Shown here: piece by piece, positions 2,337 through 26,419 of the stretch | Layout of the letters: each line of letters starts with the position of its first letter | How positions within the stretch are numbered: the first letter of the stretch is position 1 | The notes under the pieces: generated by a model | Databases searched by the model: none | Told to the model about the DNA's origin: nothing | The model's input: only the letters and a program-made list of their open reading frames with translations | Program-made: the position numbers and the translations under genes | IMG/VR virus record: IMGVR_UViG_2529292726_000019 | Origin: a virus | Taxonomy: Duplodnaviria; Heunggongvirae; Uroviricota; Caudoviricetes | DNA length: 46,731 nucleotides | Direction: 5' to 3' (one strand)

Positions 2337-2927
2337 CTATTTATTATAAACAAAACCAATATCTTTCTTGTGAGGCATATCTGCTGCTGAAAAAGCTGCG
2401 ATCTTCGCGAGTCGATCACATATTTCATTTTCACGATGCCCGGCGTGACCTTTAACCCACTTCCAGCGAACATTATGTCGACTTGCGGCCTCATCCAGAC
2501 GCTTCCACAGATCAACATTCTTTACCGGTTTTTTGTCAGAAGTCATCCATCCATTGCGTTTCCACCATTTCATCCACTGTGTCATGCCGTTTTTCAGATA
2601 CTGGCTATCAGAGTGCAAAATAACGTTGCATGGATATTTCAAACGCTCCAGCCCGATAAGTGCCCCCATCATCTCCATGCGGTTATTGGTGGTGCTATGA
2701 AAACCATCTGAGAACTCGCGTTCCTCACCACGATACTGGAGAACGATACCGTAACCGCCCGGGCCACCCGGATTTTTAAGGCAAGAGCCATCACTAAAGA
2801 TTTTCACGGTTTTAAGCTGGGGATTGAACTCTACGACAGGCGTTGTGGGATTGGTGCGGGGGGAATTTTTGTTTTTGGCTTTTTTGCGAGTTTTTGCTTG
2901 CGATCGGGCTGGTGTCTTCGTCGTCAT
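2337..2927 (-). CDS. rnhA: ribonuclease HI
   Basis: Motifs VKIFSDGSC...GGYG and ...HSDSQY...[20 protein letters not shown] match the RNase H catalytic core. Start chosen at MTTKTP (ATG 2927-2925) with an AGGAG Shine-Dalgarno; it carries a basic N-terminal extension of about 40 aa. Confidence 0.85.
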
Positions 2928-3509
2928 ATAAACTCCTGAATCAAGCGCCGCGCCGATTTTTCCTCGCGCGTGCGCACACGCGTGCGTGTTAATAATTATT
3001 AAAATAAACAAATTACTTCCCAGAACAGGTTTTTATAAACCTGAACTGAACGAACGAAGTGAGTGAAGTTCACCTCGAACGAAGTGAGAGGTTGTCTTTT
3101 CAGGTAATACTCTCCCAGGGAGGTGAGTATAAAAATCTCTCACCAACCTGGTCGTTTCATAACCTGAAAAGTTATGGTCTAAGTCTACTGCCAGCTTAGA
3201 CTTGGGAAGTTATGGATGACAGCACCCCAGAACCGAGATCTTCCCACACTTTATGAAGGGGAGTACTGGATTCAACCTCTCGAAACACCCCAGACTCGAC
3301 AATCATAAAGTGACCCTTGTCTCTGCTCACTTTGGTTCCCCCTTCCCCGACACCTAAACGGCACCAGTTCTACGCTGGTAGTGAGCTTTTTTAAACCTGA
3401 CGCCAGTGACGCTTACCCCCACCCATCAGGTCGAGTCTCCAGTCTACGACTGGAAACTATCAGATCTTAGCACTTACAATTCACTTTATGAATAGTTTGT
3501 ACTTATCTA

Positions 3510-22332: not shown

Positions 22333-22545
22333 TTAGTGTATTTTCTTTAACAGACCCCAAAGTGTTCCGGCTTTTGTAGTCAGTTTTCCTGTTTCTGGAT
22401 CGTACATACGCCATTCACGCCGCTGGTGGACGATATACCCATCTTCACGTTCCAGACGCTCAAGAATGCCAGGCTGCTTGAAACCCTTAGCACGCCAGTA
22501 GCCGCTTGTTTTCTCGATTTCCAGACCTGCCAGTGTTAATGCCAT
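22333..22545 (-). CDS. hypothetical protein (70 aa)
   Basis: ORF; stop/start coupled with the upstream gene. Confidence 0.4.
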   Translation of the reverse strand: MALTLAGLEIEKTSGYWRAKGFKQPGILERLEREDGYIVHQRREWRMYDPETGKLTTKAGTLWGLLKKIH

Positions 22546-22880
22546 TACCCAACCTCCTTGCAGTCATCGAAAAGGTAGCTTTGCTGAGAAGCGTGAACGC
22601 CATAGAAGCCCTTGTATTTGTTGTATACGAAGTGGTCTTCTCCGACGCCGGTTAATTTGCCATTACGATTTGTGAGATATGGGGATGACAACACTCGATC
22701 GTCACGCACAACATAGAACTGGTCGCCGCTGTCTACGACCATCGCTCCATATGGTGCTTTTATGACGTCGGTAAGAGCGCCATTCTTAACGTCGGCTACA
22801 GACATTTCACACTGATAAACAGTGGTGTCGGCCACAACGATCGAAGAAAGAAACAACAGCGCGAATGGGATGGTCTTCAT
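22545..22880 (-). CDS. secreted protein (111 aa) with N-terminal signal peptide
   Basis: MKTIPFALLFLSSIVVA signal-like N-terminus. Confidence 0.5.
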   Translation of the reverse strand: MKTIPFALLFLSSIVVADTTVYQCEMSVADVKNGALTDVIKAPYGAMVVDSGDQFYVVRDDRVLSSPYLTNRNGKLTGVGEDHFVYNKYKGFYGVHASQQSYLFDDCKEVG

Positions 22881-23056
22881 GCTGCCACCTCTTTGATTAC
22901 ATCAAATGCTGAATTAAATACGAGCACGATAGCCAAAGCGTTTATGACTACGTCGTGCACCGGGGAAAAGACTTTACGAATGACACCAGTGAAAATGCAG
23001 TCGATGACAAAAGCTATTGAAACGATGAGTAACAAGTATTCAATAAAAATCTTCAT
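22877..23056 (-). CDS. small membrane protein (59 aa, below the ORF-track cutoff)
   Basis: Hand-translated MKIFIEYLLLIVSIAFVIDCIF...; ATGA-coupled to the next gene. Confidence 0.3.
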   Translation of the reverse strand: MKIFIEYLLLIVSIAFVIDCIFTGVIRKVFSPVHDVVINALAIVLVFNSAFDVIKEVAA

Positions 23057-23906: not shown

Positions 23907-23928
23907 AAGGCGTCCAACTGGACGCCTG
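23907..23928 (-). terminator. rho-independent terminator aaggcgtcc-aact-ggacgcctt
   Basis: Hairpin followed by a T-run on the minus strand after the SPFH gene. Confidence 0.5.
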
Positions 23929-23943
23929 AACTTTTTAGGGGAG

Positions 23944-24774
23944 TTATTTCACTGTAATGAAAGGAGTGTTAGCCCCTTGAGTCATGTACTGCGGTAACTG
24001 GCCATTCCATTTATTGATGGCTTCCAGTTCCATAACGTTCGGGTTTTGACGCAGAGCTTCACCGCGCAGACGAATGGCGTCTGCTTCTGCTTGCGCACGA
24101 GCACGGATAGCATCAGCTTCACCATTAGCCTGTTCACGTAGCATATTCGCCTCAGCTTTACGTTGTTCAACTTCCTGCTGACGTTGCAGAGTACGCTGGT
24201 TAGCCGTTACTTTGGCGTTGATAGATTCAATGACGGTTTTTGGGTAATCAGGCTTTCCAACCCATGACAGGCTCAGTACCTCAATACCAACCGGAGACAT
24301 CTCTTTCTGAATGTCTTTCAGTGCGTTGTCCAGCAATTGCGCCTTACCACCGTCGATAAATGAGTCAGTGGTCATACGGCTGGCCAAACGGTTTAGAGAG
24401 TCGGCAATTTTCTGACGCAGATCTGATTCGGTGATATCGTCTACGCCTTTGCGATAGGTCTGGAACACCGTCGTTACCTTGTCACGATTAACCAGATACG
24501 CAACGCCAATTTTGTGACCAATAGCAGTACCGTCACTCATCTGGAATGTGAACGGTTCGTCGTAGGTCTTCATTTGTTTGAAGGTCGGGAATACGTAAAG
24601 TTCGGTGTTAAGACCTGTCCATTGGCGACCAACGCCAACCACTTCACCGATCCCTTTGTCTTCACCTAATTTGTTTACTTTGATGCCAACGTATCCAGGC
24701 TCCACGCGATCACAGCCAGTAAGACCCATTGTGCAAATAGCCGCCAGAGCAACTGCAAGTAAACCTTTCTTCAT
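23944..24774 (-). CDS. SPFH/band-7 (stomatin/prohibitin-like) lipoprotein
   Basis: Lipobox LTGC after a signal peptide, band-7-like core, Ala/Glu/Arg-rich coiled-coil tail (EADAIRARAQAEADAIRLRGE). Confidence 0.6.
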   Translation of the reverse strand: MKKGLLAVALAAICTMGLTGCDRVEPGYVGIKVNKLGEDKGIGEVVGVGRQWTGLNTELYVFPTFKQMKTYDEPFTFQMSDGTAIGHKIGVAYLVNRDKVTTVFQTYRKGVDDITESDLRQKIADSLNRLASRMTTDSFIDGGKAQLLDNALKDIQKEMSPVGIEVLSLSWVGKPDYPKTVIESINAKVTANQRTLQRQQEVEQRKAEANMLREQANGEADAIRARAQAEADAIRLRGEALRQNPNVMELEAINKWNGQLPQYMTQGANTPFITVK

Positions 24775-24777
24775 TAC

Positions 24778-24978
24778 TTATTTCCCCTTTGCTTTGATTA
24801 ATGAGTTGATAAACTTACGACCAGCAATAAGACCGATTACAGGAGCACCAAAACCAACGATAACTCCAAACATGACGGCTAAATCACTCTTGGTAGAAAT
24901 CAGCGACGGAACCAGTAAACCGTAGATGAGAGTCACTGAAAGGCCTGTGGCTACTGCCAATAGATAGATTTTGATCAT
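24778..24978 (-). CDS. small two-helix membrane protein (66 aa), co-transcribed upstream of the SPFH gene
   Basis: Hydrophobic throughout; conserved start region and a palindrome upstream. Confidence 0.5.
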   Translation of the reverse strand: MIKIYLLAVATGLSVTLIYGLLVPSLISTKSDLAVMFGVIVGFGAPVIGLIAGRKFINSLIKAKGK

Positions 24979-25045
24979 GTGTTTTCCTATGTGGTTGTTA
25001 TGCGAAAATAATAAGTAAGCACTTATATATTTTCAAGAGATAAAA

Positions 25046-25066
25046 AAGGCGTCCTGTGGACGCCTT
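25046..25066 (-). terminator. rho-independent terminator aaggcgtcc-tgtg-gacgcctt
   Basis: Hairpin plus T-run on the minus strand after the recA-like gene. Confidence 0.5.
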
Positions 25067-25070
25067 GTGT

Positions 25071-26144
25071 TTACTCTTCTACTGACTCGGTTGGGTTGTC
25101 TTTTGCTCTTCGGTCGTCGATTGCCTGCAAAGCCGCAATGATTTCAGCCAGTGGCTTCTCCCGATACATCTCGACGATCTGCGATTTGGTGTATTTCTTG
25201 TCACCAATTTCAACTCGCCCGCTGGCGTTCTTTGGCAGGTATCCTTCTTCCAGCATGTACTCGACGAGCGATTCGATAACGTCGAGGCCACGAGTAGGAT
25301 CGAAGTAGAATTTCCAGGTGCATTTGCCATACGGTGGTGCAACTTTGTTTTTGATGCATTCTGCGCCTACGTCCTGGCCGATCTTCTCTTTACCATCCTT
25401 CATCACCGATGCACCAAGACGGATACGTACAGAAGCGTAGAACTTCGGTGAATCTCCACCTGGCGACGTAGTAGGGTCGCCAAACATTACACCGATTTTT
25501 GTGCGAACCTGATTCAAGAAGATGATGCAGGCGTTGTATTTGCGTGCCCACAAAGCCAGAGTAGGGAAGTTCGCACTTGTCGCACGAGCCAGTGCCGTAT
25601 TGTCGTTCATGTTCAGCTGATCTTTGTCTTTGGCAGTGCCTTCAGCCATCTTTTCGAACTTCTCGGCTTTGGAGTTCGGAACCATAGACGCAAGTGAGTC
25701 AGCCACGATACAGATAGGTGCTGATTCAGGAATAAGCTCTTCATCACGTACCAATTTAAGAATTGTGCCGATCAACTCTACAGAGTCTTCGAAGGTATCA
25801 GGCTGCTTGTATACCCACTGACCGTCATCCTCATCTGCGTTCAGGCCATTGGCTACAGCCAGGCCAACGTCAAAACTGTTTTCATGATCGAGGAATACCG
25901 CCAGACCATCTTGTTTTTGAGCGGAGATCATCGCTGCTGTTGCAAGGAACGTTTTCCCTGCACTTGGAGGACCGAATACTTCGACGATACGACCACATGG
26001 GAAGCCGCCATCGTAACGACCAGAAATAGCTTTGTTTAACGGTGGAAAGCCTGTATCAATCCAATGAGTTACTTTCTGAATTTCGTCGTTGCTACCGATT
26101 TTCTTTTTCAGAGCAAGTGCCAGTGCGGATTTTCCTTTTGCCAT
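25071..26144 (-). CDS. recA: RecA-like recombinase
   Basis: GGFPCGRIVEVFGPPSAGKTFLA Walker A region and RecA-like core. Confidence 0.85.
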   Translation of the reverse strand: MAKGKSALALALKKKIGSNDEIQKVTHWIDTGFPPLNKAISGRYDGGFPCGRIVEVFGPPSAGKTFLATAAMISAQKQDGLAVFLDHENSFDVGLAVANGLNADEDDGQWVYKQPDTFEDSVELIGTILKLVRDEELIPESAPICIVADSLASMVPNSKAEKFEKMAEGTAKDKDQLNMNDNTALARATSANFPTLALWARKYNACIIFLNQVRTKIGVMFGDPTTSPGGDSPKFYASVRIRLGASVMKDGKEKIGQDVGAECIKNKVAPPYGKCTWKFYFDPTRGLDVIESLVEYMLEEGYLPKNASGRVEIGDKKYTKSQIVEMYREKPLAEIIAALQAIDDRRAKDNPTESVEE

Positions 26145-26146
26145 GA

Positions 26147-26419
26147 TCAGGCTCCTTTTGTTTCGTTGATTCGTTTTAAAGCGGCGGATTCGTCGAATAC
26201 AATCGCATCGTGGTTAAGGAGTCTGGATACACGAGCGAGGATTTTTACGACCTGCTCGCTGACTAATCCAAACTCGCGATCTGTCGCTTTCATTCCGGCA
26301 GCGCCTAGAATTGACGGCAGTGCGATGACAGCGTACTCACCGTGATAAAAGACAATCTCTTTTGCCAGTTGGGCAGGGGTGGTTGTAGCGCCATTGATAA
26401 TCGATTTAAGCATTAGCAA
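26147..26419 (-). CDS. hypothetical protein (90 aa)
   Basis: ORF between the exonuclease and recA-like genes. Confidence 0.4.
   Translation of the reverse strand: MLMLKSIINGATTTPAQLAKEIVFYHGEYAVIALPSILGAAGMKATDREFGLVSEQVVKILARVSRLLNHDAIVFDESAALKRINETKGA

Follow-up and report, generated by a model that had tools for sequence, protein, structure and literature searches.

A predicted SPFH lipoprotein and its putative hairpin membrane partner form a conserved two-gene unit in SSU5-like phage-plasmids and other phages

SPFH proteins (prohibitins, stomatins, flotillins and HflK/C) build membrane cages. The virus DNA analysed here, IMG/VR record IMGVR_UViG_2529292726_000019 (Caudoviricetes; 46,731 nucleotides (nt), referred to below as the window), encodes a 276-residue lipoprotein with an SPFH domain and, directly 5' of it, a 66-residue membrane protein that folds as a predicted helical hairpin. 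The favoured reading, with a probability of about 0.5, is that the pair specifies an SPFH cage that faces the periplasm, with the hairpin as an integral subunit, and serves phages as an accessory or host-takeover module. Both open reading frames (ORFs) had been described in an earlier note made from the sequence alone, and an ORF check recovers them on the minus strand. The SPFH call itself is correct but not new, because public records annotate the pair already: Cyrano, an element carried by Escherichia coli LF82, labels it 'membrane protein' and 'Stomatin-like integral membrane protein', the SSU5 record labels the larger gene 'putative SPFH domain / band 7 protein', and the N4 record annotates gp19/gp20. 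What is new is modest, and consists of a hairpin partner that is conserved and in some cases fused, the prohibitin-like periplasmic character of the lipoprotein, and the regulatory wiring of the unit.

The stomatin/prohibitin-like core that had been read from the sequence is borne out by a Pfam search, in which Band_7 (PF01145) matches residues 23–209 with 106.2 bits against a cutoff of 23.6 (E = 2.6e-30) over profile positions 2–176 of 176. The protein also matches PHROG 200 ('lipoprotein') at 3e-108 over residues 1–275. A single-chain AlphaFold2 (AF2) model with a predicted local distance difference test score (pLDDT) of 91.9 lays out an anchor helix (residues 2–18), SPFH1 strands (21–95), SPFH2 (97–176), the coiled-coil helices CC1 (179–243) and CC2 (245–255), and a low-confidence tail. 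The coiled-coil tail proposed earlier is likewise present: residues 190–245 contain 12 Ala, 9 Arg, 8 Gln and 7 Glu among 56, and AF2 models one 65-residue helix. CC1 and CC2 correspond to the wall-forming helices of solved SPFH cages, and in the C-terminal tail W256 is invariant in the family while G258 and P261 are near-invariant (alignments A1 and A2).

Structural and profile comparisons place the protein among the cage-forming SPFH families. Foldseek aligns the whole chain with cage protomers, with HflK (7vhq_E, 2.8e-14) at the top, and with HflC, PHB1/2, erlin1/2, stomatin, flotillin, QmcA (8z5g, 6e-8) and the vault protein (MVP) also matched; the probability is 1.00 to HflK/C, PHB, erlin, stomatin, flotillin, QmcA and MVP at 13–18% identity. 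A single-sequence search of the PDB returns HflK as its sole match. With a profile of 104 family members, prohibitin-1 ranks first (7e-10, nearly full length), followed by PHB2, HflK, QmcA and HflC. The NCBIfam equivalog cutoffs are not reached for HflC (TIGR01932; 30.2 against 134.4 bits) or HflK (TIGR01933; 18.7 against 159.4 bits). Given this profile ranking and scores more than 100 bits under the HflK and HflC cutoffs, the protein belongs to a distinct prohibitin-like subfamily and not to HflK/C.

The lipoprotein assignment is also upheld. The N-terminus, MKKGLLAVALAAICTMGLTGC followed by DR, consists of an n-region, an h-region and the lipobox LTGC, and the arrangement MKK-GLLAVALAAICTMG-LTGC agrees with the lipobox pattern [LVI][ASTVI][GAS]C behind a positively charged n-region. 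Cys21 is invariant both in the family alignment (A2) and in 19 fusion proteins (alignment A4), and the CDR at positions 21–23 is conserved among close relatives. Asp at position +2 is the Lol-avoidance signal of Enterobacteriaceae. Retention in the inner membrane, at its outer leaflet, is therefore predicted for an exported lipoprotein with Asp +2, and the SPFH protein probably faces the periplasm from there.

Hydropathy confirms the two-helix membrane protein that had been proposed as the companion of the lipoprotein, with hydrophobic helices at residues ~4–22 and 33–51 and a basic C-terminal tail, and the protein matches phrog_1130 ('membrane protein') at 4.9e-25 over residues 1–65. Its conserved turn motif, YG-LVP-x-LIS-x-K/S-D, takes the form (Y/F)G-x-x-x-P-x-L-(I/V)-S-x-x-(S/D) among homologues, with P24 and S28 invariant (alignment A3). 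No source names the partner or assigns it to a Pfam family, and precomputed Pfam entries are '-' for 92 of 92 homologues.

Natural fusions tie the two proteins functionally. About 18 of the best 150 cluster representatives at 50% identity are single ORFs in which the hairpin is joined in frame to the SPFH protein. They keep the same turn motif, and a third hydrophobic helix links the hairpin to the SPFH domain; an AF2 model of one fusion has three N-terminal helices (pLDDT ~82–84). The fusions therefore point to a topology in which the hairpin is N-in/C-in, the third helix runs in-to-out, and the SPFH domain lies outside the cytoplasm; both ends of the separate hairpin protein are predicted to be cytoplasmic. 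One further 'fusion' (P0021), from a P1-like element, results from a frameshift in the normal 14-nt overlap and so weighs less than the 18 divergent fusions. Among the 19 fusions of alignment A4 (P0125–P0241) the lipobox Cys is invariant and always follows G, A or S, and the 'signal peptide' has become the internal third helix; the invariant Cys may mark lipidation and cleavage of the precursor.

Hairpin genes lie immediately 5' of the SPFH gene, mostly overlapping it, on unrelated phage backbones. The partner is gp11 in P2-like P88, gp30 in N4-like Moo19, and gp19, adjoining gp20, in coliphage N4, where gp20 shares 64% identity with the SPFH protein of the window and gp19 shares 41% with its hairpin, over the core. 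It is an ORF left unannotated in the record of lambdoid phiP27, gp115 (one ORF removed) in rV5-like PVP-SE1, an overlapping ORF in P1-like elements, a 67-residue ORF in a chromosomal P2-like prophage, and ORFs with two transmembrane (TM) helices in distant metagenomic phage contigs. Overlaps between the hairpin and SPFH genes in other phages amount to 4, 8, 14 or 20–26 nt. The hairpin gene is directly upstream in 79 of 80 IMG/VR loci, which were found with the narrow alignment A2 and represent close relatives (at least 77% identity) on few backbones. A tblastn search with the 66-residue partner as a single sequence finds it in SSU5-like elements only, and the wider distribution comes from reading upstream ORFs together with the shared motif. 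Conserved synteny and natural fusions support the small membrane partner better than the sequence alone allowed, and by these comparisons the hairpin is a true partner of the SPFH protein.

The SPFH family occurs in 413 of 50,697 phage records, from virulent and temperate phages whose hosts include Pseudomonas, Erwinia, Klebsiella, Escherichia, Burkholderia, Caulobacter, Salmonella, Bacillus and Prevotella (Lak megaphages), and crAss-like phages carry it likewise. It is also found in 658 PLSDB plasmids, 620 of them non-mobilizable; ~100-kb Yersinia pestis plasmids have the SPFH gene at 93.8% identity. Among 5,426 complete E. coli genomes, 283 contain the family, in 198 plasmid and 101 chromosomal places, and about 4–5% of complete genomes of the species carry an SSU5-like phage-plasmid. 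In the phage regions examined, the SPFH gene sits among early, replication or accessory genes, and no structural or lysis genes adjoin it. A role in a lysis cassette is unlikely, since no lysis genes are annotated beside the pair in those regions. A virion component was also considered and set aside: a Vi01-like virion proteome yields only 3 peptide retrievals, which probably reflect carried-over membrane.

The 1.5 kb around the pair is 99.3% identical to Escherichia phage CMS-2020a, and this match identifies the window as part of an E. coli SSU5-like phage-plasmid. The hairpin stop codon and the SPFH start codon are separated by 3 nt on the same strand, a gap that allows translational coupling. 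The earlier description of a two-gene unit with its own promoter-like motif and terminator agrees with the signals found (Table 1). Promoter-like matches number 2 in the region against 2.9 in shuffles, which is not above chance, so that a consensus match alone is no evidence for a promoter; the -35 element is invariant and the -10 reads TAT(T/C)AT in all SSU5-like variants despite diverged flanks. Both strong hairpin-U6 terminators are kept in all SSU5-like variants, and a compensatory T>C/A>G change in the stem of the upstream terminator occurs in one variant (L037). The upstream terminator is predicted to shield the cassette from read-through out of the RecA-like gene. Ratios of non-synonymous to synonymous divergence (dN/dS) of 0.13–0.24 for the hairpin gene and 0.03–0.07 for the SPFH gene indicate that both ORFs are under purifying selection.

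Comparison of the window with Cyrano separates the histories of the two genes. The SPFH proteins are the same, with no non-synonymous differences (dS 0.04). The hairpin gene is only 73% identical (Cyrano L001, 8245–9279; dS 0.63). Because the SPFH protein is identical yet the hairpin gene is 73% identical, a recombination breakpoint is placed at or near the 24774/24778 junction, and one SPFH allele appears to work with different hairpin alleles.

Published RNA sequencing (RNA-seq) of E. coli LF82 carrying Cyrano, which is nearly identical to the element of the window, covers lysogeny broth (LB), Dulbecco's modified Eagle medium (DMEM) at 1 h and 6 h, and macrophages at 1 h and 6 h (PMC9928086, S1 Table). 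Expressed as log2(fpkm+5), where fpkm is fragments per kilobase per million reads, the hairpin gene CYRAN_56 has 2.32/2.32 in LB and 7.61/7.70 in macrophages at 6 h, and the SPFH gene CYRAN_57 has 4.30/3.02 and 7.25/7.42; the upstream RecA-like gene CYRAN_55 has 3.56/3.12 and 4.06/4.05, and the downstream CYRAN_58 has 2.69/2.32 and 4.20/3.94 (PMC9928086). In the LB lysogen the hairpin gene thus stands at the floor of 2.32 and the SPFH gene is ~1.4-fold over the element background, under the 5-fold moron cut-off, and the pair is absent from the 13 Cyrano morons expressed in LB (PMC9928086). Because the Cyrano pair rises while its neighbours stay low, the unit is read as insulated, silent in the LB lysogen and separately inducible, from data with low read counts and two replicates. 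Expression falls after the SPFH gene, consistent with the downstream terminator. A rise in macrophages is also seen for some late genes of Cyrano, among them those for the major capsid protein and tail (PMC9928086). Farther along, CYRAN_60–62 (~22333–23056 in the window; two hypothetical proteins and a P1 Cra-like protein) reach log2 values of ~8.3–9.0 in macrophages at 6 h, with CYRAN_58–59 low, and look like a second, separately induced unit.

The palindrome that overlies the promoter recurs across the element. Allowing up to 2 mismatches, the window contains 8 copies where 0.15 would be expected and Cyrano contains 9 where 0.06 would be expected; they lie between minus-strand genes, mostly just 5' of those for the methylase, ThyX, RNR-alpha, SbcD and SSB. 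The palindrome probably serves as an operator bound by a phage regulator or as a promoter element specific to the phage, and since it is shared with those genes, the cassette appears to be wired into the DNA-metabolism regulon of the element. The earlier note regarded the pair as unusual inside a replication module. The replication-module setting holds, with genes for a RecA-like protein, an exonuclease, SSB, a UvsY-like protein, DnaE and RepA flanking the pair. The place is not unusual, because the pair is fixed at the same position in all SSU5-like elements, shares its promoter palindrome with adjoining DNA-metabolism genes, and stands among early or replication genes also in N4-, P2-, lambdoid and rV5-like phages.

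In the favoured reading, the two genes would be one insulated transcription unit for a two-component membrane scaffold. After export, the lipoprotein would receive its lipid at Cys21 and stay in the inner membrane owing to Asp +2, with its SPFH domain on the periplasmic face, and would assemble into a ring or dome through the 65-residue helix and the C-terminal tail, in an HflK/C- or prohibitin-like manner. The hairpin would be the integral-membrane subunit, with its ends in the cytoplasm and its P-x-L-I-S-x-x-D turn at the periplasmic surface. Made together with early and DNA-metabolism genes, the module would act as a host-takeover device, which is the least certain part, and, as the phage develops or the envelope is stressed, the cage might fence off or stabilise a patch of the host inner membrane. 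The analogy with HflK/C and prohibitin suggests one candidate client, a membrane machine of the host such as FtsH, a protease. An early, lytic role is supported by the 413 phage records, many of them from virulent phages, together with the palindrome shared with DNA-metabolism genes. A bolder version is tentative and unlikely: that a phage-specific two-component periplasmic cage, encoded by over 400 phage genomes that range from N4 to Lak megaphages, captures a defined host inner-membrane machine (e.g., FtsH or a membrane-acting immune effector) and so represents a class of device for host takeover or counter-defence that has no precedent, with fused forms made as a precursor and cut at the invariant lipobox Cys.

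Several points weigh against the favoured reading. In macrophages the pair is induced while the replication genes are not, a pattern that suits a conditional role in lysogeny as well as, or better than, a purely lytic one. Arg at position +3 may make Asp +2 a weaker retention signal, and in the family at large position +2 is variable (S, T, D, G or E). Oligomerisation, lipidation and localisation are predictions, and the structural models are of monomers; an FtsH interface is not inferable, because identity to HflK, HflC and prohibitin is only ~15–18%. The partnership also has exceptions, as no recognisable hairpin stands beside the SPFH gene of Erwinia phiEa104, and Pseudomonas phage TL has just a single-TM ORF there. 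Literature found on SPFH proteins in connection with superinfection exclusion, defence, N4 gp19/gp20 or phage-plasmids offers annotation and speculation only.

Among the alternatives, superinfection exclusion or defence, one of the roles suggested in the earlier note, in which the lipoprotein and hairpin block DNA entry at the inner membrane or trigger abortive infection, is unlikely. Early membrane proteins and lipoproteins are classic exclusion factors, as with T5 Llp and T4 Imm/Sp, and in N4 and Moo19 the pair is found beside a P22 gp17-like 'superinfection exclusion' gene. Against this reading, SPFH cages span only small membrane patches. A scan of PADLOC-DB v2 gives no model for either protein even at E <= 1, and a literature search found no paper that ties SPFH proteins to exclusion or defence. 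In its favour, a whole Klebsiella SSU5-like plasmid reduced phage burst and plasmid uptake, with no gene assigned (PMC8969562). In the Cyrano lysogen grown in LB the pair is silent, and the list of 13 morons lacks it, which argues against constitutive prophage defence.

Unlikely to the same degree is mimicry of HflK/C, by which the phage cage would trap or shield FtsH and thereby stabilise phage proteins such as CII/CIII-like regulators or membrane proteins, or shift LpxC and membrane proteostasis. This analogy draws on prohibitin and HflK/C as the nearest solved relatives, which regulate FtsH-family AAA proteases from the non-cytoplasmic side (PMC12048511; PMC2636767), and FtsH is universal, in line with the spread of the family over phages of many phyla. 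Set against it are the NCBIfam scores far under the HflK and HflC cutoffs (18.7 against 159 and 30.2 against 134), the lack of a second paralogue and of an HflK/C-like TM helix, and an identity of 15–18%, which bars comparison of contact residues.

A lysogenic-conversion or envelope-stress factor, induced in the host niche to protect the inner membrane or acting as a lipoprotein on the animal host, is quite unlikely. Strictly virulent N4-like, rV5-like, Bruynoghevirus and phiCbK phages keep the pair and have no lysogens to benefit. The pair does possess its own promoter and terminators, and in Cyrano it rises ~10–40-fold at 6 h in macrophages with flanking genes low, but late genes also rise there, so partial induction is possible, and the counts are low with two replicates. 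Precedents exist in the Pasteurella prophage lipoprotein PM0222, an HflK/C-like virulence factor that acts via TLR1/2 (PMC9872710), and in E. coli HflKC, which is reported to aid tolerance of aminoglycosides and oxidative stress (PMC10434171).

A true NfeD-stomatin operon, with a cytoplasm-facing stomatin and an NfeD partner as in QmcA-YbbJ, is very improbable and is the only rival excluded: a small membrane-protein gene does lie directly 5' of the SPFH gene and QmcA is among the structural matches, but the partner is too short for an OB-fold domain, NfeD (PF01957) is absent from it at E <= 1 and from eight fusions at E <= 0.1, no ClpP-type domain is present, the lipoprotein signal peptide would put the SPFH domain in the periplasm, and the HflK/C and prohibitin subfamilies have no known NfeD partners (PMC2636767). 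The resemblance to such operons proposed in the earlier note thus survives in gene order and fails, by domain search and lipoprotein signal, in the NfeD domain and the cytoplasmic face.

The phage protein shares the SPFH1-SPFH2-CC1-CC2-tail architecture of prohibitins (PHB1/PHB2 and the bacterial 'SPFH4' homologues of Hinderhofer et al. 2009), and probably their non-cytoplasmic side, but it is lipid-anchored instead of TM-held, has a single paralogue and a dedicated hairpin, is phage-borne, and is ~15% identical. E. coli HflK/HflC-FtsH is similar in having a periplasm-facing inner-membrane SPFH cage, which for the phage protein is predicted, and HflK/C has a historical phage link through lambda lysogeny; the phage locus differs in having one SPFH gene and a 66-residue hairpin instead of an hflK-hflC pair, and no N-terminal TM helix. 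The NfeD-SPFH operons (QmcA-YbbJ, YqiJK and archaeal PH1510/PH1511) are likewise co-directional two-gene units with the membrane-partner gene upstream, and the partner is probably within the assembly in both; the phage partner lacks the NfeD OB-fold and protease domains, and the predicted membrane face is opposite. The pairs of N4 (gp19-gp20), P88, phiP27, PVP-SE1, SSU5 and Cyrano (PHROG 1130/PHROG 200) are direct homologues with the same order and overlap and no essential difference.

Table 1. Sequence features of the two-gene unit and its surroundings in the window.
Feature	Position	Strand	Basis
Hairpin gene, 66 aa	24778..24978	-	ORF, hydropathy, phrog_1130
SPFH lipoprotein gene, 276 aa	23944..24774	-	ORF, Band_7, PHROG 200, AF2, Foldseek, profile against PDB
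Signal peptide, lipobox LTGC, Cys21, then Asp +2	24712..24774	-	Sequence; helix 2-18 in model
SPFH/Band_7 domain, aa 23-209 (SPFH1 beta-rich, SPFH2 alpha/beta)	24148..24708	-	Pfam envelope, AF2 secondary structure
CC1 (aa 179-243) and CC2 (aa 245-255)	24010..24240	-	AF2; full-length alignment to cage protomers; weak Flotillin-tail match
C-terminal tail, aa 256-276	23947..24009	-	Alignments A1 and A2; low pLDDT in monomer model
Shine-Dalgarno AGGA, 6 nt 5' of hairpin ATG	24985..24988	-	Read from sequence
Shine-Dalgarno GGGG for SPFH gene, within 3' end of hairpin gene	24784..24787	-	Read from sequence
Promoter-like site TTGAAA-17-TATTAT, sigma-70 type	25008..25036	-	10/12 match
Palindrome ATAAGTA-NN-TACTTAT, 1 mismatch, over promoter spacer and -10	25011..25026		Operator-like
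Palindrome, 16-bp sites	3872, 4535, 10154, 14871, 19555, 25011, 28535, 41566		Cyrano (L012) at equivalent places
Upstream intrinsic terminator, after RecA-like gene	25046..25066	-	9-pair stem + U6, -15.6 kcal/mol, z -6.1
Downstream intrinsic terminator, end of unit	23908..23927	-	8-pair stem + U6, -15.1 kcal/mol, z -4.6

The neighbourhood in Cyrano comprises genes for RecA-like, exonuclease, gp32-like SSB, UvsY-like, DnaE, RNR, ThyX and SbcCD proteins, nearly all on one strand, and one for RepA. The RecA-like gene of the window (25071–26419) encodes 357 residues followed by a 90-residue ORF, and the Cyrano record has a 2,340-nt RecA coding sequence (L001, 9373–11712); the difference in length could come from a fused Cyrano annotation or from an insertion such as an intein or homing element. 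Cyrano contains a hicA-hicB toxin-antitoxin pair (L012, 26536–28514) between dnaE and the UvsY-like gene; the two genes are among the most highly expressed Cyrano morons, and the window has only ~100 nt there (29019–29121), so that this gap is a variable slot for accessory genes. In distant phages, an Acb2/Tad1-hairpin protein (L093, 218–520), a Tad2-like protein (L010, 9729–10304), a NADAR protein (L099, 2714–3151) and a P22 gp17-like protein (L098, 669–983) are encoded near the pair. Such counter-defence-type neighbours are a hint, suggestive only, that the pair belongs to anti-defence or accessory islands.

A compact, lipid-anchored, prohibitin-like protein and its 66-residue partner are kept by very different phages, including the genetically tractable N4, and the pair offers a minimal setting in which to study the function of an SPFH cage and the reason phages need one. 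Nothing here overturns current understanding, and the practical gain is modest: corrected 'serine protease' and 'transposase' labels, a missed phiP27 partner and a defined two-gene target. The SPFH gene is mislabelled 'serine protease' or 'putative transposase' in several records. In phiP27 (NC_003356) an unannotated 62-residue hairpin ORF at 2816–3004 overlaps the start of the lipoprotein gene L05.

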